In this document: in pieces, positions 1 to 18,222 of the stretch | How the letters are laid out: every line of letters begins with the position of its first letter | Numbering within the stretch: position 1 is the first letter of the stretch | Source of the DNA: Anaerolineae bacterium | GTDB taxonomy: Bacteria > Chloroflexota > Anaerolineae > B4-G1 > SLSP01 | Length of the DNA stretch: 64,000 nucleotides | Assembly: GCA_049975385.1 (NCBI GenBank) | Contig: JBNGDO010000001.1 | Span: forward strand, 2,600-66,599 | Reading direction: 5' to 3' | The notes under the pieces: generated by a model | The model's database searches: none | What the model saw: the letters and a program-made list of their open reading frames with translations, nothing else | What the model was told of the DNA's origin: nothing | Made by a program: the position numbers and the translations under genes

Positions 1-1541
1 ACGGTCGATTCGGTGGGGCCGTAGAAGTTCCACAGCGGGATGCCCCACGCCAGCACCTTCTGCGCCGGCGCGCGCGGCAGGGCCTCACCGCCGCAGCAGA
101 TCAAGCGCAGGGATAACGGGTCGGCAGTGTCGTAGAGATCGACCAGCCGTTGCAGCGCCGACGGCGTCTGGTTGACGATGGTGACGTGCTCTGCGCGCAG
201 CAGTTCGAGGAACGCTGTGGGCGACTGCGCGACGGCTTGCGGGACGATGACCAACCGGGCTTCACAGAGCAGGGGCGTCCAGAGTTCCCACACCGAGAAA
301 TCGAAGGCGTACGAGTGGAAGACCGTCCACACGTCGGCGGCGTTGAAGCCGAAGACCGGGCGGGTGGCTTCGATGAGGTTGATCACGCTCTGGTGAGCGA
401 TGGCGACGCCTTTGGGTTGGCCCGTCGAACCGGAGGTGTAGATGACGTAGGCCAGGTTGTGCCCCTGCGCGCCGCCATCCAGGTTCGTGTCCGCGTGGGC
501 GGCGATAGCGGGCCACGCGGCGTCCAGGCAGACGATGTGCGCGGGGGTGGGTGGGAGCGTGTCGACGAGCGCGTTCTCGGTCAATAGCACCGGCGTCTGC
601 GTGTCGGCGAGCATAAACGCCTGGCGCTCGGGCGGGTAAGCGGGGTCGATGGGGACGTAAGCGCCGCCGGCCTTGAGGATGCCGAGCATCCCGACGAGCA
701 TCGCCGTCGAGCGCGTGACGTCCATCGCTACGGGGACTTCCGGGCCGACGCCGAGCGCCCGCAGGTGCCGGGCCAATCGGTTGGCGCGGGCGTTCAACTC
801 GCGGTAGGTGAGCGTCTGCCGGGGCTTTCCCGGTTCAGCGCAGACCACGGCGATAGCCTCCGGCGTTCGCGCGGCCTGGCGCTCGAAGCGGCGGTGGATG
901 CACTGTCCGGTATAGCCGGTGTCAGTCGTGGTGTCATTCCAAGCGACGAGGATTTGGTGGCGTTCGGCTTCGGTCAACATGGGGAGGGATTTGAGGGATA
1001 AGTCCGGCGTGGTGACGAAGCCTTCTAGCAGTGTGAGCAGGTGCCCGGCCAACCGCGCGACGGCGGCGGCTTCGAAACGGTCGCCGGCGTAGTCGATGTG
1101 CAGGTGCAGCGCGTCATCGACGGTGATGGTGAAGGGGACGGCGGCGTGTGTGTCCTCCACGCGTGTGCCGAAGACGAGCAGTGTCTCGAGATGGGATAGC
1201 TCCGGCTGGTATGCAGTGGCCGAGTTGGCTTGCAGTGCTGTGAGCCAGGCGCGTGCTTTTTGCTCCGGTTGGATGGTTGTGTGTGTGAGTATGGGAGTTT
1301 GGGTGATATGTACCCCGAAGGCCACGTCTGTTTCGCCGCTGTAGCGGCTGAGGAGTAGCGCCCACGCGCCTTGGATGAGTGTCAGTATATCGAGGGTGTT
1401 CTGGCGGGCAAAGTCACGCAGCGCGGCGGCAAGTTCCGGTGTGGGCGCGACCGCGTAGACTGCGCGCGACGTCACCCCGCCGTTATCCGGCAGGGGTTTG
1501 GCGATAGACAGCGGCGTTGGCGCGGGGAATTCATCAGTCAT
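1..1541 (-). CDS. Non-ribosomal peptide synthetase-like protein, N-terminal part (degenerate condensation-like region + adenylation domain); C-terminus runs off the window start
   Basis: Reverse-complement translation from ATG 1541..1539 gives MTDEFPAPTPL... and shows adenylation core motifs LTYRELNARANRLARHL (A1), AYVIYTSGSTGQPKGV (A3), FDFSVWE (A4) and NFYGPTE (A5). A C-domain-like stretch TLDILTLIQGAWALLLSRYSGETDVAFG precedes them. There is no in-frame stop before position 1, which is why the ORF track does not list it. Confidence 0.8.
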   Translation of the reverse strand, partial: MTDEFPAPTPLSIAKPLPDNGGVTSRAVYAVAPTPELAAALRDFARQNTLDILTLIQGAWALLLSRYSGETDVAFGVHITQTPILTHTTIQPEQKARAWLTALQANSATAYQPELSHLETLLVFGTRVEDTHAAVPFTITVDDALHLHIDYAGDRFEAAAVARLAGHLLTLLEGFVTTPDLSLKSLPMLTEAERHQILVAWNDTTTDTGYTGQCIHRRFERQAARTPEAIAVVCAEPGKPRQTLTYRELNARANRLARHLRALGVGPEVPVAMDVTRSTAMLVGMLGILKAGGAYVPIDPAYPPERQAFMLADTQTPVLLTENALVDTLPPTPAHIVCLDAAWPAIAAHADTNLDGGAQGHNLAYVIYTSGSTGQPKGVAIAHQSVINLIEATRPVFGFNAADVWTVFHSYAFDFSVWELWTPLLCEARLVIVPQAVAQSPTAFLELLRAEHVTIVNQTPSALQRLVDLYDTADPLSLRLICCGGEALPRAPAQKVLAWGIPLWNFYGPTEST

Positions 1542-4500
1542 ATTGATCAAATAGCTTGTTAAGCTGCCGCGGGCGGGCGCGGGTGAGGGCAGCGATGCGG
1601 TCGTTGGATTCGCGGAGCCGCTCACTGAGGACGTTGATGAGCGCCAGCGACATCTCCGGGTTCTGACGCGCCAGGGCGATGAGGGGTTCGCGACGCAGGC
1701 GCAGCGTGAGCGTGTCCTGGATGGCGACGGCGGAGGTGGTGTGCGGGCTGTTATCGAAGAAGTTGGCCTCGCCGAAGTACGAGTGCGCCTCGATGGTTGC
1801 CAGCCGCGCGAAAGAACCGGTGCGCTTCTCCTGCTCGATACCGACGCGCCCGTTGACCACCACGTATAGTGCGCCGCCGGGATCATCGTTGTTGTAGATG
1901 CGCGTGTCTTCCTCGTACATTTCTTCCTCGCAGACGTTCGCCAGAATTTTGAGCTGGTCGATGGTCATCCCCTGGAAGAAGGGGACTTCTTTGAGGAAAA
2001 TGATCTTCTCAATGGCAGAAAGCATAAGGTCCTCCTTCATAAAACCGGTTTGAACGCCGTTTATCAATCGTTTGGCAATCTGGGCCGCGAGACGCACTTC
2101 CTCTTCCGGGTCTTTGAGCGCCGTCACCAGGAGTTCCTCAATCTGGGTGAGGGTGAGGGGGGGAGAGGGAGAGGGAGAGAGAGAGGAGGGGGGAGCGTCT
2201 AGCTTTGGAGTTTCGACGGCTGTGGTCTCGGCTGTTGCCGTTTCGGTTTTGGGGCCGTCGAGCGCGCCGAAGAGGTCGGCGGGGGGGCGACGGCGTGCGC
2301 GCGGCGCGGGCTCGGTGTCGGCGGGCGGCGCGTCAGGCTGGGCCGCCTCCGTCTTTGGCGCGTCGAGGGCGGCGAAGAGATCTTTCGGCGCGGCGCGGCG
2401 CCGGCGACGCCCTTCGGTTTCCGGTGCAGTGGGTGGTGACTCGGGACTCGAAGAGGCTTTGGGCGTGGGCGGGACGAGTGCCGCGCCGAGTTGCCCTAGC
2501 GCAAAGACCGTCATCGTGCGTACCCACGGATCTTCGGGAAGCGTGGCGAGCTTCTGGATGGCTTCGGCGGTATCCGGTGCCTCCATATCCCAGGTTTCCT
2601 TGCTGAGTGTCAAAAGCTTGCTCGTCGGGGTGTCCGGTTCGAAGAGTGGTGCAATCAACTCGGCGGTCTTGGGCGTGGTCAGCGATTCCAGAGCCTCGAC
2701 GGCATTCGCGCGCGTCCGGGAATTGTCGCTGCGTAGGGAATCGTTGATGATTTCTACGCTGTTCGGGTCCTGGATTGCAGAAAGCAGGTAGAAGATTTCC
2801 GTGGTGAGGCGTTGGCTTTGTTCACGCAGCGCGTTTTGCAGCACGGCGAAGCCCGGATGCGTGGCACAAGGTTCCAGAGCTTCGACCAGGCCGTAGTTAC
2901 CGTAGATGGCAAGCAGGTTGCCGGTGATGTTCGCGCCGACGATCAATGGCCCAAACTCCTTAGGGTTGATGCGGCTCAAGACGACGGCGGTCATTTTGCG
3001 CAGTTGTGCGTTTGGCGAATCGAGCTTGGGATGGATGACCGGGATGATCGTCTTGTCGAGTGCCACGAGTGTTGCGGCAGCGGTCTCACGGACTTGCGGG
3101 CTGGTGTCGGTGAGTGCATCGACGATCAGGGGATAGGTTTTGCGGCTGCCTACGCGTCCTAATATGACGAGAGCGGCCCGGCGCGTGCGTTCGACGGGGT
3201 CGTCGAGGCGAGCGCTGACTTTGGCCTCGAGTTCAGTCTTCACCACATCGTTGAGCGATGTCTTCTGCACAGCGGTTTCAATGGCCAGAGCGGCTTCGAG
3301 GCGAACCTCGTCGGCTGGATCATCCAGATAAGCCATCAACCGGTGGAGGGTTTGTTCGCTCTTGATCTGCCCTAGGATGCGGACGCCGTAAGCGCGGTAA
3401 TGGGCATTATCGCCGGTCAGGAGGGCTTCGAACGCATCCGCAGCAGGCTTGAGCGTGTATAGCTGGTCCGATTGCGCCAGGACCGAAAGGACCTGTCCAA
3501 GCACATTGATGTCGGGGTCGTTGACCATATTCGACATTTGGGTGAGGAATTGCGGATCGTTGGGCGCGGCAAGTTGTTGCAGTCCCACAATGGCGGACTG
3601 TCGGACCTGTCCGGAGGGGTCATTGGTAAAGTCGAGATACAGTTGGCGCACGGCATCGCCGCGTAGATCGGCGGCGGCAAGCACGTCGAGGATAGCGGCG
3701 CGGGTGTGGCTTTCGGGTGCGGCGTGGGCGGTCTGGCTCAGGATGGGGATAGCATCGCGCCCGCCGATTCTGCTAATGAGTTGCGCCATAAACACGGTGA
3801 GTTCGTGGCTGGTGCTGCTTTCGAGCTTCTCGCGTAGTTTGCTCAACGTTGCGGGATCGGCGACGGTTAACTCGGAAACACTTTGGGTCAGCAGGAAGGA
3901 GTAGTCCTCTTGTTCGAGCATCTTAACGAGCGCCTGTCCATACTGCCGGCGAACGATAAGTGCATTGGCGATGTAACCGATGGCGAGTGCGAGCGTTAAG
4001 GTAGGCAAGAACCATCGCAGTGCTACAAATGGTGGTAACAAGAGGATACTGCCGATAAACACACCGATGGGGGCGACGAGGCCGTCGATAAAGGCGTGCG
4101 CGCGTCCTTTAATGCGCAAGGGGACAGCGTTGTAGAGCAAACTGTTGATCTGATAGCCAGCGTTGCCATAGAAAGCGGTGCTATCGAAGTAGCCGAAGGC
4201 AGCCATTGGCAAACCGGGGAAGAACGCTAGGCCTGCGGAAATCGCTAGATTGCCGGCTGGGAAGATCAAATAGGCGTTGCCCACCCCAATCCAGCCGATG
4301 ATGCGGCTGAGCAAGAAGAGCTGGAAAGGCAGCATAATCAGGTTCGCCACGCCGGTTACGAGACCGTAGAAATTTGCCATCGCCTCGGTCGTCTGGAGTT
4401 TATCGACAATGATCACGCTGGTCTGATATCCGACAAAGGTGAGGAGAATCACGACGACAAGTGTGCCGGTGGCGATCCAGCGCAGGAAACGTGACTGTGT

Positions 4501-5211
4501 GACGTAATGGTACCCTTCACGTAACTCGTTGAGATATGAGATGCGGGTTTTTTCTGTTGTCTTGGCCTTGACGCCGGATAACCCGGCTGGAAGCGTATCT
4601 CCGGTGGACCTGATTATGCGCGGCATCACCCATGCTCCCAACGCCATCATCCCTAACATACTGAGCCACACGATGATGATACTGTTGGGCGACAGTACTT
4701 TGTTCAGAGACTCCATACTCAACCCGGCGATGATACTACCGATGCTGCCCGCTGTGCCCAGGACGGGCACGATACGCTTGGCCGCTCGTGTGTCGTAGAA
4801 GCCGTTGATGTAAGTGAACCAGTGCGCGGTGAGAATGTCGGTCAGTGGAACGTATATCAACAGATAGAGCAAGGGGTAGGCAACGCGTGTGAGTCCTATA
4901 TTGAGCAGACCAAAGCCAATGAGGATGCCGGTTCCACCGATGAGCAAGATGGCGATCAAAAGCTTGTGACTGGCGATGCGATCGGCGAACGCGGTGTAGA
5001 TAGCGACTGCGGGTATGGAAAGGATGGCTCTAACCATAAAGAACCAGGGCAGTCCCTTCACGCCTACTTGTTCCAGGAAGGCGGCTGCGACGATGGTCTC
5101 GCCCCAGACCGCGCCAAGCGTGACTGCCAGCAGCATCGCATAGAGCAGGAGCAGCCGCGGCCACTCTTCCGATCGAACGTTGAACAGCTTGTTGAGGAAT
5201 TGCACCATAAT
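1534..5211 (-). CDS. Multidomain membrane protein: N-terminal ~12-TM TLC (ATP/ADP-translocase-like)/MFS transporter domain + PBS-lyase-type HEAT repeats + disordered Pro/Arg-rich linker + C-terminal cyclic-nucleotide-binding (CAP-effector) domain
   Basis: Part of the 1261-aa ORF 1534..5319. The likely start is the internal ATG at 5211 (MVQFLNKLF...), which is preceded by AAGGAAGGTG. The N-terminus has hydrophobic TM helices. HEAT-like E..VR..A..AL repeats follow. The C-terminus (FFQGMTIDQLK...GEANFF...TAVAIQDTLTLRL) is a cNMP-binding fold. The stop TGA at 1536..1534 overlaps the next ATG at 1541. Confidence 0.7.
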   Translation of the reverse strand: MMVQFLNKLFNVRSEEWPRLLLLYAMLLAVTLGAVWGETIVAAAFLEQVGVKGLPWFFMVRAILSIPAVAIYTAFADRIASHKLLIAILLIGGTGILIGFGLLNIGLTRVAYPLLYLLIYVPLTDILTAHWFTYINGFYDTRAAKRIVPVLGTAGSIGSIIAGLSMESLNKVLSPNSIIIVWLSMLGMMALGAWVMPRIIRSTGDTLPAGLSGVKAKTTEKTRISYLNELREGYHYVTQSRFLRWIATGTLVVVILLTFVGYQTSVIIVDKLQTTEAMANFYGLVTGVANLIMLPFQLFLLSRIIGWIGVGNAYLIFPAGNLAISAGLAFFPGLPMAAFGYFDSTAFYGNAGYQINSLLYNAVPLRIKGRAHAFIDGLVAPIGVFIGSILLLPPFVALRWFLPTLTLALAIGYIANALIVRRQYGQALVKMLEQEDYSFLLTQSVSELTVADPATLSKLREKLESSTSHELTVFMAQLISRIGGRDAIPILSQTAHAAPESHTRAAILDVLAAADLRGDAVRQLYLDFTNDPSGQVRQSAIVGLQQLAAPNDPQFLTQMSNMVNDPDINVLGQVLSVLAQSDQLYTLKPAADAFEALLTGDNAHYRAYGVRILGQIKSEQTLHRLMAYLDDPADEVRLEAALAIETAVQKTSLNDVVKTELEAKVSARLDDPVERTRRAALVILGRVGSRKTYPLIVDALTDTSPQVRETAAATLVALDKTIIPVIHPKLDSPNAQLRKMTAVVLSRINPKEFGPLIVGANITGNLLAIYGNYGLVEALEPCATHPGFAVLQNALREQSQRLTTEIFYLLSAIQDPNSVEIINDSLRSDNSRTRANAVEALESLTTPKTAELIAPLFEPDTPTSKLLTLSKETWDMEAPDTAEAIQKLATLPEDPWVRTMTVFALGQLGAALVPPTPKASSSPESPPTAPETEGRRRRRAAPKDLFAALDAPKTEAAQPDAPPADTEPAPRARRRPPADLFGALDGPKTETATAETTAVETPKLDAPPSSLSPSPSPPLTLTQIEELLVTALKDPEEEVRLAAQIAKRLINGVQTGFMKEDLMLSAIEKIIFLKEVPFFQGMTIDQLKILANVCEEEMYEEDTRIYNNDDPGGALYVVVNGRVGIEQEKRTGSFARLATIEAHSYFGEANFFDNSPHTTSAVAIQDTLTLRLRREPLIALARQNPEMSLALINVLSERLRESNDRIAALTRARPRQLNKLFDQYD

Positions 5212-5473
5212 CTGCACCTTCCTTAAGGACGCATCGATTGCTATAAGATACTGTCGCTCAGTGTCAGCACAATCGGCCGATGTTGCTACATAATTCCGTT
5301 GACCTTGCTGAACTTTCACAAAGGCGATGACCTTATCATAGCACAGTTTAACTGCGTTAGGATAAAGTTTATGTAGCGGTTTTGTAGCAGTTGTGTTAGG
5401 AAATCACCGTTATGTGAACTTCGCGAAGGTGCACGGGCCTTGGGCTCGCATACTTTCGCAAATCGCGGCAACT

Positions 5474-8400
5474 TCAAAATTTCTCCGGAATGTGGCTCAA
5501 TTGAGGAACTTGGCCGGACTCTGTCAGAATCAATCCCACCCGCGCAGCATACGCGGCACGAATCTCCTGGTGCAGTAGGATGTTCTCCAGATAGGTCCGG
5601 CGGAAGTAGCTATCTGCGGGGATAAGCGCGTGTTTACGCGCCATTTCGTCATAGGCTCTACGGAGATATTTGGTTGCCTCTTCAGGTTGTTCGTTGGCTG
5701 CAAGGGCCTGGCTGTAGCGGAAGAGGATTTCCTCGCTCACGCACTCAGTAATTTGCACAAAACCGAACGTCTGGTAAAGCTCCAGCGCCTTCTGAGCGGT
5801 GTCTAGTGCGTTGTTCAGGTGCTCGTAGACTATGCCGGGCTTGGCGGTGGCGGCATCTTTGGCAAGCATTGCCAGTTTGAGGTGCGCGGCGGTGGCTTTG
5901 CACAGGGCCGCCATCTCATACTGCCGCGAGACCAGGGGGCTTTGAAGGGCAAGCTCTTGGACTTCTTCAGCCAGTTCCAGCGCCATGCGCAGGTGGGCTT
6001 CATCGCCGAGGGCGTTGTAGAGGATGGCCCAAACCAGTTTCAGGCTGGCAAGCCCGCGGTCCTGGACCGGCTCACCGATGTCGCGGATGCGCTCCAGGCT
6101 GGCGAGCGCTTCGGTGTACTGGTATTGCTCGCTTTGAATTTGGGCGATGTGGAACAGCGGGTACACTTCGTCGCGGGAGCCGATCAAGATGCGCTGGCAC
6201 TCTTCCAACAGCGCCAGACCGCCCTGGTAATCACCCAGGTAGATGCCCTGGATCCGCCCGCAGGCCTGCAACGCCTTGCTCTCATTGGGGCGGTGACCGA
6301 TTTCGCGGCTGATGTTAAGACGTTCCTGCTGGTATTCTGTCAGCAGGCGGTAGTAATCGCCGCTGCGTTCAAATTCCAATCCCAGCAGGTTGAGCAGCGA
6401 CATCTGGGTGATCTTGTCGTCGAGGCCCTGGCGCATCGCGAGTGCGGCCGCGGCCTCCAGGTACTCCATACTGAGCGAAGGCTCATCGCTGAAGGCAAAG
6501 ACCCCGCCCATACCGATGAGTAATCGCGCCTCAAAATGCTCGTCCTGCACCTGGCGGGCGAGTTCGAGGGCGCGCTCGGCCAGCGGCTGCCATTCGGGAT
6601 CGCTTAAGGCCAGACGATGGTTGACGATGGCGATGAGGCTTTCCATTTCGCGGCGTTGGTCGCCCAATTCCTGCGCCAGCGCGAGGGCCTGTTGCGCCAT
6701 CGGGATGCCGGCGTCGATTTCTTCTTTGCATTGGTAATCGGCCACGCCCGGCTGTTGGAGCAGCGCGTCGATGGTGAACGTGGGATCGTCGGCTAACTGC
6801 TCTGCCAGCGGCAGCAGCGCCTTGGCATCTTCCCACATCGCTTCGAATTGTCCCATAAGGTAGAAGACCGCGCGCCGCTCGTTGAGGACGCTGAAACGTT
6901 GTATGCGTATGGCGCGGCATTGATCTTCGTCGCTTGCTTTGTGCTCCAATGCGTCGAGGATTTCCAGGGCACGCGTGAACTGTTTGCCTGCTTCGGCGTT
7001 GGCGTAGACGTGCTTGGCGTGCGCAGCGCCCTTGAGAACATAATCCAATTCTTTGTCCGGCAGGCCGGCGTGCCGGAAGTGATAGGCCAAAGCGCCGTAG
7101 AACTGTGGAGAGGGTTCGGTGGCATCCGATTTACAGCAATGGCTTTCGATATACTCGGCAATGCGCAGGTGATAACTGGTTCGTTGGGTGTTGAGTAGAC
7201 GGTCGTAGGCCGCGTCGCGGATCAACGATGATCGGAAGACGTATTCGATGCCTAGCTCCGAAGCGCGCCCGCGCTCGCGGATCAACTGCGCGCGTTGCAA
7301 CGCCGTGAGGTGGGCCTTGACGCGCGCCGGGTGAGTTGCCAAGACTTCGATGATTTTCGACCAGAACACGGTGCCGACCACGGAAGCGATTTGCAGGATG
7401 TGTTGCTCTTCCGGCGTGAGCCGGTCGATGCTTGCCAGAAGTAAGTTCTGCAAGCTATCGGGCAGCGTGAGGGTGGTGACAGCCTGGGTGGTGCGCCAGC
7501 GACCATCCTCCGGCGCACGGGTTAAAATCCCCTCAAAAATCAGCGCGCGCACCAATTCCTGGATGTAATATGGGTTACCCTCGGCTTTGCTGATGATGAG
7601 GTCTTGTGTGGCTTCGGGGAGCACATCCGGCCCGATCAACTTCGCAATCATCTCCTGGCTCTGCTCGGCGGTAAGGGGGGCAAGCGTGAGGCTGGTCAGG
7701 CGATGCGGGTATTCAGTCTCGATGTAGTAGCGAAATTCCCAGATCTGCGAAGTGCGATCTGGCCGGAAGACAAATAGCCACAGCAAGTCAGTGTAATCGC
7801 AGAGTGGGAGGCAGTATTTGAGCAGGTCCAGCGACGTGGCGTCTACCCATTGCATATCGCTGAGGTTGATCACGAGCGGCCCCTGTTGTGTGAGCGCCTC
7901 GACCCAACTGCGCAGCGTGAGGAAGAATTGCTGGCGCAGGCTGTCGGCGTCGAGACGCCTGATCTGCTCGGCGTGGTCAGCTTCCAGTGGAAGTGACAGC
8001 AGCGTCGCCAGGTCGGGATAATACTCATCGGCATGATCGCCCCACAGCATCTCGGCTTGTTGGTAGAGACGGTCGCGCGTTTTCTCCTGCGGCTCGTCCG
8101 AACGGATACCGAGCCAGTTGCGTAGCATGTCTTGCCACACCGCATAGGGTTGCGACTGGGTGTAAGAGCGGCAGCGCCCGCGCAGCCATATGACGCCGAT
8201 CTCCGCATCTGCGGAGGGGGTGGGGTAGGTTGGCTGGCCGACCTCGGCGCCTTTGTCACGCGCTTCGGCCAAGAGCGCGTTTTGCCGGGCGAAATACTGG
8301 CGCACTTCATTGGTGAGCAGTGATTTGCCCATCCCATGTTCGCCCGTAAGGATGACAATGCCGCCAATGCCATCACTTAGGTCTTCGATGCAAGCTTTGA

Positions 8401-9382
8401 GACTGTCAACCTCTGCGTCGCGCCCGATGAGCGGGCTGGGTAGCTCATATTCGGGCTTTTCCAGGCTGACGTAGGGCGCAAGAGGCCGGTAGACAGCGAC
8501 GGGTGTGCTCACGCCCTTGACCTTGATCTCGCCGAGCGGTAGCCACTCGAACTGTGAGGTGGTGAGACGGAACGTGTTCTCACTCACCAGCACGGTGCCG
8601 GGTTCGGCGGCGGTTTCCATGCGCGCGGCAAGCGCGATGGCCTCGCCCATAGCCGTTTCTTCCCGGTACTGGCGGTCGTTGCCCACGCTGGTGACGATGA
8701 CCTCGCCCGTGTTGACGCCCACGCGCAGCGCCAGGCTGATGCCCTCGCGTTTTTCCAGGTCAGCGGCGAACGGTTGCAGTGCCGACTGCATCGCCAGGGC
8801 CGCCAGCACCGCGCGCTCCGGGTCGTCCTCGTGCGCCGTCGTCGTCCCGAAGAAGGCAACCAGGCCATCCCCACGGAATTGATCGACTTTGCCGCCGAAA
8901 CGGTAGATCTCCGTTTCCAGGATCTGGAGGACGCGGTTCATCATCTTGACCCACGCCTCGGTGCCGACCTGTTCCATCAGATCGGTGGAACCTTTGACGT
9001 CCGCGAGGATGATCGTTGCCAGGCGGCGTTCCCCTTCGAGTGGAGCTAGATCGCCGGGTTCTGCTGGGCCGGTCGATGCGCTAGAAAGCGCGCTGGGAGG
9101 CGTGCCAGGAGGCGCACCTTCCGGCACACTTTCTCGGATGCTTTCCGGTGCGCCAGCAAATGCCTGATCTGGTATGCGTTCTGGGGGAACCTCCTGTGTC
9201 CGCAGCGGAATAACGTCGAATGCGGAAGCGGCGCTGAGGGGATTGCCGCACTCGCTGCAAAAGCGATGGGCGCGCGGATTTTTCGTCCCGCAGGCCGGAC
9301 AGACCAGCCGGAGACGCGCGCCGCACATCCCACAGAATTTATGTCGTGCGCGAACCTTGAAGCCGCACTCAGGACACTTCAT
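5474..9382 (-). CDS. Double zinc-ribbon + class III adenylate/guanylate cyclase + STAND (AAA_16/NB-ARC-like) ATPase + TPR-repeat protein
   Basis: The N-terminus has four CxxC pairs (CPECG...CGMCG...CPACG...CSECG). The cyclase domain reads RRLATIILADVKGSTDLMEQ...FRGDGLVAFFG...VGVNTGEVIV. The P-loop is GIVILTGEHGMGKS. The C-terminal ~600 aa are TPR-like helical repeats. Confidence 0.85.
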   Translation of the reverse strand: MKCPECGFKVRARHKFCGMCGARLRLVCPACGTKNPRAHRFCSECGNPLSAASAFDVIPLRTQEVPPERIPDQAFAGAPESIRESVPEGAPPGTPPSALSSASTGPAEPGDLAPLEGERRLATIILADVKGSTDLMEQVGTEAWVKMMNRVLQILETEIYRFGGKVDQFRGDGLVAFFGTTTAHEDDPERAVLAALAMQSALQPFAADLEKREGISLALRVGVNTGEVIVTSVGNDRQYREETAMGEAIALAARMETAAEPGTVLVSENTFRLTTSQFEWLPLGEIKVKGVSTPVAVYRPLAPYVSLEKPEYELPSPLIGRDAEVDSLKACIEDLSDGIGGIVILTGEHGMGKSLLTNEVRQYFARQNALLAEARDKGAEVGQPTYPTPSADAEIGVIWLRGRCRSYTQSQPYAVWQDMLRNWLGIRSDEPQEKTRDRLYQQAEMLWGDHADEYYPDLATLLSLPLEADHAEQIRRLDADSLRQQFFLTLRSWVEALTQQGPLVINLSDMQWVDATSLDLLKYCLPLCDYTDLLWLFVFRPDRTSQIWEFRYYIETEYPHRLTSLTLAPLTAEQSQEMIAKLIGPDVLPEATQDLIISKAEGNPYYIQELVRALIFEGILTRAPEDGRWRTTQAVTTLTLPDSLQNLLLASIDRLTPEEQHILQIASVVGTVFWSKIIEVLATHPARVKAHLTALQRAQLIRERGRASELGIEYVFRSSLIRDAAYDRLLNTQRTSYHLRIAEYIESHCCKSDATEPSPQFYGALAYHFRHAGLPDKELDYVLKGAAHAKHVYANAEAGKQFTRALEILDALEHKASDEDQCRAIRIQRFSVLNERRAVFYLMGQFEAMWEDAKALLPLAEQLADDPTFTIDALLQQPGVADYQCKEEIDAGIPMAQQALALAQELGDQRREMESLIAIVNHRLALSDPEWQPLAERALELARQVQDEHFEARLLIGMGGVFAFSDEPSLSMEYLEAAAALAMRQGLDDKITQMSLLNLLGLEFERSGDYYRLLTEYQQERLNISREIGHRPNESKALQACGRIQGIYLGDYQGGLALLEECQRILIGSRDEVYPLFHIAQIQSEQYQYTEALASLERIRDIGEPVQDRGLASLKLVWAILYNALGDEAHLRMALELAEEVQELALQSPLVSRQYEMAALCKATAAHLKLAMLAKDAATAKPGIVYEHLNNALDTAQKALELYQTFGFVQITECVSEEILFRYSQALAANEQPEEATKYLRRAYDEMARKHALIPADSYFRRTYLENILLHQEIRAAYAARVGLILTESGQVPQLSHIPEKF

Positions 9383-14412: not shown

Positions 14413-15153
14413 ATGAATCTACACATCTACAAGACAAAAGATGATATGGGCATGGCGGCGGCAGGGCAGACGGCGCAGTGGCTCAACGCGGCGATTGCGG
14501 CGCGTGGAGAGGCGAACTTGATCCTTGCCACAGGCGCGAGCCAGTTTGAGATGTTGGAAAGCCTCGTTCTTCAGGACGTGGATTGGTCGAAGGTGACGGT
14601 CTTCCATCTGGATGAATACATCGGGTTGCCTGAGACACACCCGGCAAGCTTCCGCAAGTATCTCAAGGAGCGTTTCGTGGATAAGCTGCCAGAGTTGCGG
14701 ATGTTCCACTACGTCAACGGCGAGGCCGCCGATCCGGCCGCCGAATGCGCGAGATTGGGCGCCCTCATTGCCGCGCATCCCATCGACGTGGCGTGCATTG
14801 GCATCGGCGAGAACGGGCACCTGGCGTTCAACGATCCGCCCGCCGACTTCGAGACCGAGGAACCCTACATTGTCGTGGACCTGGACGAGGCCTGTCGCCG
14901 CCAGCAGTTGGGCGAAGGCTGGTTCCCCACGCTCGCGGATGTGCCCGCGCAGGCGATTTCGATGAGCATCCGGCAAATCATGAAGAGCGCCGCTATCGTC
15001 TGCACCGTCCCCGACGCGCGCAAGGCGCAGGCCGTGAAAGGCGCGGTCGAAGGCCCGGTGACGAATCTGCATCCCTCGTCGATTTTGCAGCAGCATCCGC
15101 AGTGCGACCTGTTCCTCGACGAACCGGCAGCGGTACTTTTACGTAATGCGTGA
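14413..15153 (+). CDS. nagB: Glucosamine-6-phosphate deaminase
   Basis: Motifs [13 protein letters not shown] and [13 protein letters not shown]. Length is 246 aa. Confidence 0.85.
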
Positions 15154-15170
15154 TGGTTGAGAGGGCAATT

Positions 15171-15200
15171 CACGTATCACGAGTCACGCATCACGCGAAA
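15171..15200. repeat. Heptanucleotide tandem repeat (CACGNNT x4) in the nagB-nagA spacer
   Basis: Reads cacgtatcacgagtcacgcatcacgcg. If translation were to start at the upstream TTG it would encode YHESRIT. Confidence 0.8.
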
Positions 15201-15213
15201 AGGATGTGTCAAG

Positions 15214-16200
15214 GTGAATTATCGCTCTGGTTTTGTGGATTTGCAGGTCAACGGCTTTCTGGGCGTGGATTTCTCCAGCCCAGACTTGACCGAAGTAGAT
15301 TTCGTCCGCGCGTGCCGGGCGTTGTTGGCGCAGGGGACGGCAGCGTTTTTGCCGACGGTGATCACCAGCTCACTCGATGCCTATGCCCATAATTTGCCGT
15401 TGATGGCAGAGGTGATGGCGCGCGAAGAATTCGCGTGCGAGGAATTCCAGGGCCGCCTATTAGGCTTTCACCTGGAAGGTCCTTTTATCTCACGAGTGCC
15501 GGGTGCGGTAGGCGCACACAATCCGGCCTACGTTCGCGATCCCGATACTGCGCTGCTGGAGCAACTGCTCGGTTGGACAGATGGGCGCGTGCGCTTGCTC
15601 ACACTGGCGGCAGAATTGCCCGGCGCGGATGACCTGGCGCGCTGCGCCGTAGAGCGAGGGATCGCCGTCTCGATCGGACATTCGCTCTACACGACTGACG
15701 ATCTGGACCGGCTGGCGGACGCTGGCGCGACGGCGCTCACGCACTTCGGCAACGGCGTACCAAACGTACTGCCGCGCCACGACAACCCTTTGTGGGCCGG
15801 AGTGGCGCACGACGCGTACACGGCGATGTGCATCACGGATGGGCATCACCTGCCTGCGCCGGTGATCAAGACGGTGGCGCGGGTCAAGGGCGCGGACAAG
15901 TTCATCGTTGTCAGCGACGCGTCGCCGGTGGCGGGATTGCCGCCGGGCCGCTATCATTTTCTGGATAACGACGCGATCCTGGAGCCTTCAGGCCTTTTCC
16001 ATAACCCAGATAAACAGTGCCTCGTGGGCTCTTCAGCAACGATGCGACAGTGTATGGCGCACTTAGCCAGCCTCGGAGAACTTTCCATCGCCGAACTGCA
16101 TCAAGTGAGCGTCACGAACCCCCTAGACCTTATCGGCATTGACTACAATGTTGATGGAACGCCAGAATGCTTGACAAATCACCAAGTCACGCTAGAATGA
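15214..16200 (+). CDS. nagA: N-acetylglucosamine-6-phosphate deacetylase
   Basis: DLQVNGFLGVDF, GFHLEGPFIS and a later HxxNG match the NagA amidohydrolase. The start is most likely GTG 15214, which follows aaaagga. The longer TTG-initiated ORF (15157) only adds repeat-encoded residues. Confidence 0.8.
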   Translation: MNYRSGFVDLQVNGFLGVDFSSPDLTEVDFVRACRALLAQGTAAFLPTVITSSLDAYAHNLPLMAEVMAREEFACEEFQGRLLGFHLEGPFISRVPGAVGAHNPAYVRDPDTALLEQLLGWTDGRVRLLTLAAELPGADDLARCAVERGIAVSIGHSLYTTDDLDRLADAGATALTHFGNGVPNVLPRHDNPLWAGVAHDAYTAMCITDGHHLPAPVIKTVARVKGADKFIVVSDASPVAGLPPGRYHFLDNDAILEPSGLFHNPDKQCLVGSSATMRQCMAHLASLGELSIAELHQVSVTNPLDLIGIDYNVDGTPECLTNHQVTLE

Positions 16201-16322
16201 ATTCCGTTCTGAGAGTTTACGAGTATTGATGATTATGCGACCAAACGCAGTGCAAATTTACGATATTCTGGGTGCGAAGAAGCCGGACCGCTAGGTCCGG
16301 GAATTTGTGCTGAACGAGATCG

Positions 16323-16366
16323 AACCGGCCCTAGTCAAAGACAAAGACTAGGGCCGGTTTTTTTGT
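16323..16366 (+). terminator. Rho-independent terminator after nagA
   Basis: Stem aaccggccctagtc / gactagggccggtt with a 9-nt loop, followed by TTTTTTT. Confidence 0.8.
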
Positions 16367-16380
16367 TTCCGAGGAATAAT

Positions 16381-16479
16381 ATGATACATCAGCAGTTGCC
16401 GTATGCGGGTAAAGTCATCAAGGTCAAGCGCGATAAGCCAGACAATGTCTGGATAGCTGCGTTTGCCCAAGACAATTGA
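16381..16479 (+). CDS. Candidate leader peptide (32 aa) with a cluster of 4 Lys codons: MIHQQLPYAGKVIKVKRDKPDNVWIAAFAQDN
   Basis: The ATG is preceded by gaggaa. It has AAA..AAG..AAG..CGC..AAG within nine codons. Its stop lies 13 nt before the terminator hairpin and 95 nt before the homocitrate synthase ATG. Confidence 0.35.
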   Translation: MIHQQLPYAGKVIKVKRDKPDNVWIAAFAQDN

Positions 16480-16492
16480 GGGGGTGTCACAA

Positions 16493-16530
16493 GGCCAGCT
16501 TCCAGATAACGGAGAAGCTGGCCTTTTTTG
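16493..16530 (+). terminator. Intrinsic terminator / putative attenuator hairpin upstream of homocitrate synthase
   Basis: Stem ggccagcttc / gaagctggcc followed by TTTTTT. It lies between the leader ORF and the homocitrate synthase RBS aaaggagagaggg. Confidence 0.7.
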
Positions 16531-16573
16531 TTGTGGCAAAGGTTTCGAATAATCCAAGAAAGGAGAGAGGGAC

Positions 16574-17710
16574 ATGGCATTGGATCAGTTTGCTATCATT
16601 GAATCGACGTTGCGTGAGGGGGAACAGTTCGTGGGGGCGAGCTTTACCACCGCGCAGAAGGTCGAAATCGCGCGGCTTCTGGACGCGTTCGGCGTGGAGT
16701 GTCTGGAGCTGACGTCGCCGTTGGCATCTCCGCAGAGCTACGAGGATGCGAAGGCCATCACGCGACTGGGGCTTAACTGTCACGTGCTGACGCACGTCCG
16801 CTGCCGGATGGAGGATGCCAAACTGGCGCTTGAGACAGGCGTGGACGGACTCGACGTCGTCATCGGAACATCGTCGATGCTGCGCGAATTCAGCCATGGC
16901 AAGGAGATCGACGAGATCATCGATCTTGCGCTTGAGGTCGTCGCGTTTGTGCGCTCGCAGGGGATTCGCGTGCGCTTCAGTACCGAGGACTCGTTTCGCA
17001 GCGACGCGCGCGATCTCTTCCGTATCTATGAGGCGGTGGACAAGATCGGCGTGCATCGTGTAGGGATTGCGGATACGGTAGGTGTTGCGACGCCGCGCCA
17101 GGTCTACGAGCTGGTTCGCGAACTGCGTCAGCGTGTCACCTGCGACATCGAATTCCACGGGCACAACGACGCTGGCTGCGCCATCGCCAACGCCTTCGAG
17201 GCGCTCGATGCTGGCGCGACGCACGTGGACACGACGGTCCTCGGTATCGGCGAGCGCAACGGCATCACGCCGCTGGGGGGATTGATCGCCCGGCTGTACG
17301 CCACCAATCGGGCGTCGGTCGCCAAGTACGATCTGCCGCTTTTACGCGCCATCGACAACACGGTCGCACAATTTGTGGGTGTGGATGTGCCCTTCAACAA
17401 CTACATCACCGGGATCGCGGCCTTTACGCACAAGGCGGGCATTCACGCCAAGGCGATTCTCAACAACCCGGAAACCTACGAAATCCTCGATCCACAGGCC
17501 TTCGGGTTGACCCGCTACATCAGTATCGCGCACCGTCTTACCGGCTGGAATGCGATCAAAAACCGCTCGGAGCAACTCGGCCTGGCGCTGGACGACGATC
17601 ACATCAAAGCGATCACCGCGCATATCAAGGCGCTCGCCGACGAAAAGGCGCTCTCGCTGGATGACGTGGATGCGTTGCTGCGCCGTTGGGCAAATGGTGG
17701 GGGTGGGTAG
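16574..17710 (+). CDS. Homocitrate synthase (alpha-aminoadipate lysine pathway; LeuA/NifV family)
   Basis: Motifs [44 protein letters not shown] and [11 protein letters not shown], at 378 aa (too short for LeuA). This is the architecture of Thermus-type homocitrate synthase. Confidence 0.85.
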
Positions 17711-17790: not shown

Positions 17791-18222
17791 CTACATAATG
17801 TCCAGCACGCGGCTGAAGCGGGCCGCCAACTCTTGCAGCACGGCGACAGCCATATCTGCATCTTCACGGAGCAGGCCGAGGAAATCCCATCGTGTCAGGA
17901 CCAGGCAGCACGTTGGCTCGGTCGCCACGACCGAGGCAGTGCGCAGCCGCTCGGTCAGCAGCGCCATCTCGCCGAAGAAATCGCCTACTTCGAGTTCGTG
18001 TAGGGTAACCCCTGTCCCATCCAACTGTTCGCGGATAACCTCGACCTGGCCTTCTATGATGACGAAAAATCCTTCACCGCCTTTGCCTTGCGTGACGATT
18101 GTCTCACCTGGATCATACGTGCGCTCGACGAAGCGTTTCCCCACTTGTTCGATCTGCCGCCGGTTCAGCCCGCGGAACAGCGGCGTGCGTTGCAAGACGA
18201 TCAATCTATCAGCGACAGCCAT
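17791..18222 (-). CDS. Standalone cyclic-nucleotide-binding domain protein (143 aa), paralog of 9431..9868
   Basis: LFRGLNRRQIEQVGK...GDFFGEMALLTERLRTASVVATE has the same domain-only architecture as the first copy. Confidence 0.85.
   Translation of the reverse strand: MAVADRLIVLQRTPLFRGLNRRQIEQVGKRFVERTYDPGETIVTQGKGGEGFFVIIEGQVEVIREQLDGTGVTLHELEVGDFFGEMALLTERLRTASVVATEPTCCLVLTRWDFLGLLREDADMAVAVLQELAARFSRVLDIM

Follow-up and report, generated by a model that had tools for sequence, protein, structure and literature searches.

Two putative lysine-keyed leader-peptide attenuators in series upstream of homocitrate synthase in an Anaerolineae bacterium

The 370-nt intergenic region between nagA and the homocitrate synthase (HCS) gene of an Anaerolineae bacterium (phylum Chloroflexota; assembly GCA_049975385.1) probably specifies one leader transcript with two Lys-keyed leader-peptide transcription attenuators in series, a reading to which we assign a probability of roughly 0.78. 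The analysis covered 64,000 nucleotides of contig JBNGDO010000001.1 (positions 2,600 to 66,599), hereafter the window, to which all coordinates refer. The downstream element, E2, had been proposed as an attenuator in a preliminary description of the same DNA. The upstream element, E1, comprises a second Lys mini-ORF (open reading frame) and a hairpin that had been taken for an insulating terminator of nagA. In both elements the Lys codons lie just 5' of, or inside, a hairpin whose 3' part can alternatively pair with the 5' arm of an intrinsic terminator.

Anatomy of the nagA-HCS leader

The features of the region, in order of transcription, are as follows (segments 1 to 4 are those of a four-segment attenuator; energies are computed).

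16171-16198, + strand: sigma-70-type promoter (-35 TTGACA 16171-16176, 16-nt spacer, -10 TAGAAT 16193-16198)
16229-16294, + strand: E1 leader ORF, translation MIMRPNAVQIYDILGAKKPDR-stop; alternative starts TTG 16226 and ATG 16235
16271-16311, + strand: predicted E1 anti-antiterminator hairpin, segments 1:2, minimum free energy -23.8 kcal/mol
16291-16334, + strand: predicted E1 antiterminator, segments 2:3, CUAGGUCCGG (16291-16300) pairing with CCGGCCCUAG (16325-16334)
16323-16364, + strand: predicted E1 intrinsic terminator (terminator 1), segments 3:4, 14-bp stem, 9-nt loop, T7
16371-16376 and 16381-16479, + strand: E2 Shine-Dalgarno (SD) sequence GAGGAA and leader ORF, MIHQQLPYAGKVIKVKRDKPDNVWIAAFAQDN-stop, 32 codons
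16422-16467, + strand: predicted E2 anti-antiterminator, segments 1:2, -21.3 kcal/mol
16447-16507, + strand: predicted E2 antiterminator, segments 2:3, GUCUGGA(U)AGCUG (16447-16459) pairing with CAGCUUCCAGAU (16496-16507)
16491-16529, + strand: predicted E2 intrinsic terminator (terminator 2), segments 3:4, stem 16491-16502/16514-16525, T6 16524-16529
16560-16565, + strand: HCS SD AAGGAG
16574-17710, + strand: HCS coding sequence, 378 aa; TIGR02146 470.7 bits, cut-off 413.55

The promoter matches the consensus at 11 of 12 positions and predicts a transcription start at about 16205. It is nearly identical in three related loci (L084, L085 and L087; compared loci carry L numbers throughout), two of which, L084 and L085, have upstream genes other than nagA. 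Of 63 loci, 60 had a match of at least 10/12 located 5' of their first leader, against 2% of shuffled sequences; TTGACA was nearly always perfect, and the family promoter occurred 5' of the first leader only. The T-rich tract that follows terminator 1 ends at 16368, 14 nt before the E2 ATG, and a separate promoter between terminator 1 and E2 was rejected because this gap leaves no space for one. With the promoter upstream of E1 and no room for another, the 32-codon leader would be the second stage of a tandem attenuator, and E2 and HCS would be expressible solely via read-through of terminator 1. The -10 box overlaps the nagA stop codon (TGA, 16198-16200), so that transcripts reading through from nagA would likewise enter the attenuators.

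The E2 leader runs from ATG 16381 to TGA 16477-16479, with its SD 4 nt 5' of the ATG. Residues 11-19 are KVIKVKRDK, with Lys codons AAA 16411, AAG 16420, AAG 16426 and AAG 16435; the 32-codon ORF, the SD and the four Lys in nine codons of the preliminary description were all present on translation. The 1:2 hairpin consists of an outer stem (16425-16432/16458-16465) and an inner stem (CCAGAC 16438-16443/GUCUGG 16447-16452). Segment 1 (CAAGCGCG...CCAGAC, 16425-16443) has the last three Lys codons within or beside its 5' strand, and segment 2 is GUCUGGAUAGCUGCGUUUG (16447-16465). In an alignment of 14 E2 sequences (A1) these stems were 90-92% paired with covariation, a score reached by 0 of 500 shuffles, and RNAalifold independently predicted the same stems.

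Segment 3 of E2, CAGCUUCCAGAU, is the 5' arm plus loop of terminator 2. Folded before the 3' arm is made, the 2:3 pairing has an energy of -22.1 kcal/mol and equals in stability terminator 2 itself, whose arms are perfectly complementary (-21.5 kcal/mol, 11 nt between arms). The pairing with the terminator 5' arm that the preliminary description had suggested searching for is therefore found in E2; 89.6% of its cells were paired among the 14 sequences, against 19-49% with the partner slid, and the duplex had z = -3.3 against shuffled arms. Terminator 2 was 96% paired in A1, with 7 pairs altered on both sides, and the alignment as a whole was 91.8% paired with 10 double-change pairs, the observed values occurring in 0 of 500 shuffles. 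The base of the terminator 2 stem covaries freely, whereas CAGCUUCC, which also belongs to the antiterminator, is conserved; this is the signature of a double constraint. The G+C stem begins 13 nt past the leader stop, as had been noted with slightly different coordinates, and about 28 nt lie between the end of the terminator and the HCS SD; the 45 nt formerly given as the distance of the terminator from the HCS ribosome-binding site is its distance to the HCS ATG.

E1 shows the same arrangement in a more compact form. Its leader ends in ...GAKKPDR-stop, with tandem Lys codons AAG AAG at 16277-16282 and a UAG stop (16292-16294) in the loop/3' arm of the 1:2 hairpin. This hairpin has an outer stem at 16271-16278/16304-16311 and an inner stem of CCGGACC (16283-16289) and GGUCCGG (16294-16300), so that segment 1, CCGGACC, lies directly 3' of the two AAG codons. 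In the alignment of 15 E1 sequences (A2, 86.3% paired overall) the inner stem was 97% paired and was also predicted independently by RNAalifold, and the outer stem was 72% paired with covariation. Segment 2, CUAGGUCCGG, starts 1 nt 5' of the stop codon and includes it. Its partner CCGGCCCUAG is part of the 5' arm of terminator 1; the pairing has one U-C mismatch and an energy of -18.1 kcal/mol in a fold made before the 3' arm, and 95.6% of its cells were paired in the 15 sequences, against 15-53% with the partner slid (range for both elements). The arms of terminator 1 (16323-16336/16346-16359, followed by T7 at 16358-16364) are perfectly complementary, with an energy of -28.7 kcal/mol; the terminator was 90% paired in A2, with 5 pairs altered on both sides.

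The preliminary description had read the hairpin from 16323 to 16366 as a terminator that insulates the region from nagA. We assign it instead to the second Lys attenuator. The E1 tail ...(M/V/A)KKPD(R/H/L/N)-stop is kept in 15 relatives, and in close relatives indels are in frame and substitutions conservative. E1 is the sole attenuator before HCS in L002 and L003, and apparently also in L001, and it is retained in L084 and L085, where the upstream genes encode ABC-2 membrane proteins and not nagA. The terminator 1 arm ACCGGCCCUAG is moreover kept in sequence across relatives, which is more than a plain terminator requires. These observations place E1 in the HCS leader. In L001 a masked stretch of N (L001:360-380) stands in place of the U tract of terminator 1, and this locus was for that reason left out of the E1 alignment.

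Taken together, the alignments support a four-segment attenuator anatomy in both elements, in which the antiterminator would use the terminator 5' arm and the regulatory codons overlap the anti-antiterminator. A simple terminator scan with a loop limit of 3-8 nt missed both terminators, presumably because their loops of 9 and 11 nt exceed this limit.

A family of lysine leaders in Chloroflexota

The 450-800 nt upstream of HCS were compared in 80 Chloroflexota genomes, using a detector for a Lys-rich ORF tail with an intrinsic terminator no more than 75 nt downstream. Of these 80 loci, 64 have a Lys mini-ORF with terminator before HCS or lysW-HCS (76 instances), which bears out the conservation of a Lys-rich leader that the preliminary description had proposed to check. 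Typical leader tails are ...NKQSKKQVPDHTVW-stop, ...SKKSKSKKPDPWSG-stop, ...KKSKKQMPD-stop and ...MKSKRSKPDPGSG-stop. On both strands of the window the detector returned the E1 and E2 sites plus one spurious match. The 76 sites lie in 64 kb of sequence upstream of HCS, whereas 1.2 Mb of control sequence taken from these loci gave 23, an enrichment of about 60-fold, and two of the 23 control matches (both in L015) look like genuine members at the start of an operon. HCS loci from more distant lineages (L113-L168) were without such a leader, except L135 and L144.

The clade nearest to the window (L004-L012, L014, L016, L034 and L081-L087) carries a tandem of two elements. Tandem Lys leaders also occur in other lineages, namely in L015 (about 3.7 and 3.6 kb upstream of HCS, at the operon start) and L023 (354 and 163 nt upstream), which suggests that duplication is recurrent. 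Possible decayed E2 copies were seen at L014:332-458 and L007:3850-3973; in L014 the usual UAG is CAG and the U tract is poor.

Several features of the reading frame point to translation of the leaders. An in-frame ATG precedes the Lys cluster in 59 of the 76 leaders, against 4 of 76 in each other frame, and an SD-like motif is present in 28. Median values are 24 aa for leader length and 4 for Lys residues per leader; the leaders differ in how many Lys codons they contain (2-7) and in how these are spaced, yet keep the frame. The stop codon stands at a fixed place relative to segment 2, with an identity that varies among TAG, TGA and TAA. Judged from these alignments, the open frame is the feature conserved across deep divergence.

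At shorter distance, identity to the window was compared for four relatives whose HCS is 93-95% identical (L084, without a usable third-position figure, is not among them), with the following results.

E2 Lys and hairpin core: 94-100%
Terminator 2: 80-98%
Terminator 1: 78-93%
N-terminal part of the E2 peptide: 60-75%
HCS third codon positions: 67-70%

The N-terminus of the E2 peptide drifts at an approximately neutral rate (60-75%, against about 69% at HCS third positions). Together with the near-invariant core, this indicates that the Lys codons and the RNA are under selection and that a small protein is not.

The pairing of each leader with its own terminator was examined over the whole family. 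In the 76 instances, the duplex between the stretch 3' of the last Lys codon and the terminator 5' arm of the same element has a mean energy of -18.8 kcal/mol (mean z -2.25 versus shuffled arms), and matched leader/terminator pairs scored better than permuted ones in 5000 of 5000 permutations. Each leader preferred its own terminator over the other one in the same genome in 11 of 11 tandem loci (Wilcoxon p = 0.001), a within-locus comparison that controls for composition and phylogeny. For the window the matched duplexes had energies of -17.4 and -21.4 kcal/mol, and the swapped ones -12.2 and -13.4 kcal/mol.

The E2 leader of the window departs from the family in where it stops. In most relatives the E2 loop has 5 nt and the leader stops at a UAG within GGAUAGCUG, giving ...KPDxGSG-stop. 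The loop of the window has 3 nt; the Lys frame therefore bypasses the family UAG and stays open as far as UGA 16477. This short loop and the continuation ...K(V/D)KR(D/N/T)KPD(N/D)VWIAAF..-stop are common to L081 and L084-L087, with varying stop positions, and the long ORFs of L084 (32 aa) and L081 (29 aa) were picked by the gene caller. A sequencing error behind the short loop and long leader was rejected, since these five independent metagenomic relatives share the loop. A ribosome terminating at UGA 16477 would mask segment 2 and reach to just short of 16491; as the stop is still 5' of the terminator, the attenuation logic would be kept. An alternative-frame mini-ORF with one Lys codon, MRVKSSRSSAISQTMSG-stop (16403-16456, + strand), ends at the UAG 16454-16456 that is the leader stop in the more distant relatives, and probably results from the loop being 2 nt shorter.

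Other spacers are filled with repeats. In some Anaerolineae, HCS lies behind a lysK/argE-like gene (L015:3700-4000, L018:2200-2470, L019:2590-2856, L020:3750-4000), and the HCS spacers of these four loci are filled by short tandem repeats arranged as inverted arrays, GGAACTAAG... facing ...CTTAGTTCC and CAGTGAT... facing ...ATCACTG, which would fold as very long hairpins replacing the leader attenuator. GCTGA-type short repeats (AGCTGATAGCTGACCGCTGATGGCTGAT...) fill the spacer between leader terminator and lysW in L037 (3550-3900) and L052 (3650-3950).

Proposed mechanism and alternative explanations

In the mechanism that we propose, transcription would start at the sigma-70 promoter and pass E1 (...G-A-K-K-P-D-R-stop) and then E2 (K-V-I-K-V-K-R-D-K-P-D). 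At each stage the Lys codons would stand just 5' of or inside segment 1 of the 1:2 hairpin, and segment 2 could alternatively pair with the terminator 5' arm (2:3), excluding the 3:4 hairpin. When Lys-tRNA is scarce, a ribosome would stall at the AAG codons and mask segment 1, segment 2 would capture segment 3, and the polymerase would read through. With ample Lys-tRNA the ribosome would reach the stop at or beyond segment 2 and mask that segment, and the terminator would form. HCS mRNA would be made only when both terminators are passed, from which a tighter and steeper repression by lysine is expected. The sign of the response follows correctly from the geometry: with an AAG codon in its A site, the ribosome covers segment 1 and leaves segment 2 free, and at the stop codon it covers segment 2. 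Stalling itself, and a kinetic choice between the conformers, we infer.

Several points weigh against this mechanism. Lysine dependence, translation of the mini-ORFs and termination at both sites are inferred from sequence. Support for the antiterminators is mainly conservation and class-level co-variation, with two compensatory cells per alignment, and full-length equilibrium folds with a masked ribosome footprint still favour the terminator. The E1 antiterminator (-18 kcal/mol) is far weaker than terminator 1 (-28.7 kcal/mol), so that read-through there must depend on kinetics, and the SD of the E1 leader is weak in the window (GAG, 16221-16223). The E2 ORF of the window and its closest relatives overshoots the stop codon of more distant relatives, and its stop geometry accordingly differs from the family norm. 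Some relatives, finally, look degenerate: the ORF of L014 enters the terminator, and the terminator of L007 is without a U tract.

We weighed four other explanations. The region could hold a single attenuator, made of the E2 leader and terminator 2 alone, with 16323-16364 as the nagA terminator and the ...KKPDR-stop ORF fortuitous. Terminator 1 does lie downstream of nagA (stop 16198-16200, stem from 16323), where it would end nagA transcripts, and the poor SD of E1 would fit a chance ORF. This is nevertheless unlikely, since E1 with its AAG AAG codons, hairpin and terminator arm CCGGCCCUAG is kept in 15 relatives, persists behind the ABC-2 genes of L084 and L085 and stands alone before HCS in L002, L003 and apparently the N-masked L001. 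The conserved promoter upstream of E1, the mere 14 nt between the T-rich tract and the E2 ATG, and the specific complementarity of the terminator 1 5' arm to E1 segment 2 all argue in the same direction. Less probable still is an RNA switch independent of translation, in which lysine, another metabolite or a protein is the ligand of the hairpins and the ORFs play no part. The strong conservation seen in the internal loops and hairpin (GGAUAGCUG, AAGCCRGAC) would fit such a switch, and tandem layouts are common among riboswitches and T-boxes. What is conserved at depth is, however, an open frame in which the number of Lys varies, the start is in frame and the stop, though of varying codon, keeps its place; the structured part, of about 45 nt, is small for a lysine aptamer, loop lengths range from 3 to 14 nt, and an Rfam match is wanting even at E <= 10 (there was no gathering-score match in the window, and only chance-level matches at that threshold in 16100-16650).

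The conservation of a K(K/Q)SKK..PD motif across Chloroflexota could also reflect arrest by the nascent peptide, with a K-x-(S)K-K..P-D sequence stalling the ribosome via the exit tunnel, possibly together with a metabolite, and not through the supply of Lys-tRNA. Motifs of the +X+ type and motifs containing Pro are reportedly known stalling contexts (PMC12583479 and PMC11611912). We rank this explanation lower again, because the residues that are conserved are those encoded by stem-forming RNA (AGCAAG for the outer stem, CCGGAC/GUCUGG for the inner), the E2 N-terminus is about as divergent as HCS third positions, and beyond the Lys/hairpin core the peptide varies from group to group. If lysine induced a stall at this place, a biosynthetic gene would, in addition, be activated when lysine is abundant, a response of the wrong sign. 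Least credible of all is that the ORFs and hairpins are a non-functional relic or a chance occurrence without a role in HCS regulation. The missed UAG of the window E2 ORF could be read in this way, but the long-leader variant is common to five independent metagenomic relatives, the Lys/hairpin core (94-100%) and terminator 2 (80-98%) are more conserved than HCS third positions (about 69%), and the sites are some 60-fold enriched over control sequence. Two attenuators in series remain the reading that we prefer.

Genomic context and relation to known systems

HCS passes the TIGR02146 equivalog model for homocitrate synthase of the alpha-aminoadipate pathway, and its identification in the preliminary description as the first step of lysine synthesis by this route is borne out by the score. 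The solved structures nearest to it are the HCS of Schizosaccharomyces pombe and Thermus thermophilus, with an alignment from end to end. The best relatives in reference genomes were Anaerolineae/Thermoflexales-like metagenome-assembled genomes (at most 89% identity), metagenomic proteins reached at most 95%, and an exact-protein look-up returned no record of an identical sequence. Neither further lysine genes nor additional copies of the element were found in the window, in which HCS is a solitary gene.

The neighbouring genes are as follows.

14413-15153: nagB, upstream of HCS
15157-16200: nagA, upstream of HCS, ending in TGA 16198-16200
17791-18222, - strand: 143-aa cyclic nucleotide monophosphate (cNMP)-binding protein, convergent to HCS
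1534-5319, - strand: 1261-aa HEAT-repeat and cNMP-binding protein
5474-9382, - strand: 1302-aa zinc-ribbon, adenylate/guanylate cyclase and AAA_16 protein

The small cNMP-binding protein and an opp-type ABC operon lie 3' of HCS on the opposite strand, and the former occupies the same place in L081 and L084-L087. The last two genes listed are further cyclic-nucleotide signalling genes of the window.

The known system closest to the window is the leader-peptide attenuator of the lysine (alpha-aminoadipate) cluster of T. thermophilus, reportedly described by Tsubouchi et al. in J Biol Chem in 2005. We recovered the Thermus locus by way of its HCS, which matches the T. thermophilus PDB sequence at 100% identity. 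Its leader MLARAKKLGRRGVG-stop (L089:940-984) has a TTGACA-type promoter and alternative hairpins, and its terminator CCGGCCCGGGUUCGGGCCGG-UUUUC stands immediately before HCS. In this leader tandem Lys codons are followed by tandem Arg codons. Meiothermus-like loci (L103-L108) carry a leader M..AKK(V/L)..AGGAG-stop upstream of HCS, and the Thermus and Meiothermus-like terminators share a CCGGCC/GGCCGG stem with E1 and the Caldilineae-type terminators.

The likeness to the Thermus arrangement asserted in the preliminary description holds in position and logic: both have a sigma-70-type promoter, a Lys mini-ORF, overlapping alternative hairpins and a G+C-rich terminator before HCS. The Thermus leader is closest to E1, the likeness lying in tandem Lys codons 5' of CCGG... 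and in the terminator stem CCGGCCC/GGGCCGG. The two systems differ in the number of attenuators (one in Thermus, two in series in the window), in the Lys codons (three to four spaced as K-x-K-R-x-K in the 32 aa of E2, two adjacent in the 14 aa of Thermus), in codon usage (AAG in the window, AAA in Thermus), in phylum (Chloroflexota and Deinococcota) and in the position of HCS, which is solitary in the window and the first gene of the lys cluster in Thermus. No sequence homology between the leaders was detected: in nhmmer searches for it the E1 profile gave weak terminator matches (E 0.04-0.9) and the E2 profile none, and the Thermus leader profile had no match in the window. As the profiles give no link beyond the weak terminator match, we regard the window elements as a sequence family of their own that would work in the same way.

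Searches of the literature library found no description of a Chloroflexota lysine leader, and we know of no Rfam leader family for lysine. The sequence family and its tandem layout appear to be undescribed, the mechanism being already known from Thermus. Whether the wider picture holds we regard as evenly balanced: that this is a Chloroflexota-wide lysine attenuator family not described before, that it was duplicated in the Thermoflexales-like clade into a two-stage series sensor of Lys-tRNA, E1-E2, and that the RNA of about 160 nt ending at terminator 1 could also act as a stable small RNA, like rnTrpL. With these elements, ribosome-mediated attenuation of the alpha-aminoadipate lysine pathway would reach beyond Thermus into Chloroflexota. 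They provide about 75 natural variants of one attenuator design, of use for an RNA family model and for annotation of the lys regulon in uncultured Anaerolineae and Caldilineae, and they correct the annotation of the region, in which the small ORFs would be regulatory leaders and the "nagA terminator" part of the lys leader.

With the enterobacterial attenuators (trp, his, leu, thr, ilv and pheA) the window shares the 1:2/2:3/3:4 logic, codons in or near segment 1, an intrinsic terminator and a leader stop before or at segment 2. Unlike them it is keyed to lysine, has two complete tandem attenuators, belongs to another phylum and lacks an Rfam match. The lysine riboswitch (L-box, RF00168) likewise controls lysine biosynthesis in cis by premature termination; the window gives no match to its model, the element is far smaller, and sensing would be by translation of Lys codons and not by binding of lysine.

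Tandem cis-regulatory RNAs are known as tandem riboswitches and T-boxes, and as the mgtM and mgtP leader ORFs of Salmonella mgtCBR. As in these, the window has two sensors in series, from which a sharper or deeper response is expected. The window differs in that both sensors would be ribosome-mediated and respond to the same amino acid, each with its own complete terminator. It may thus offer a natural example of two complete leader-peptide attenuators in series, for which a steeper repression by lysine is predicted.

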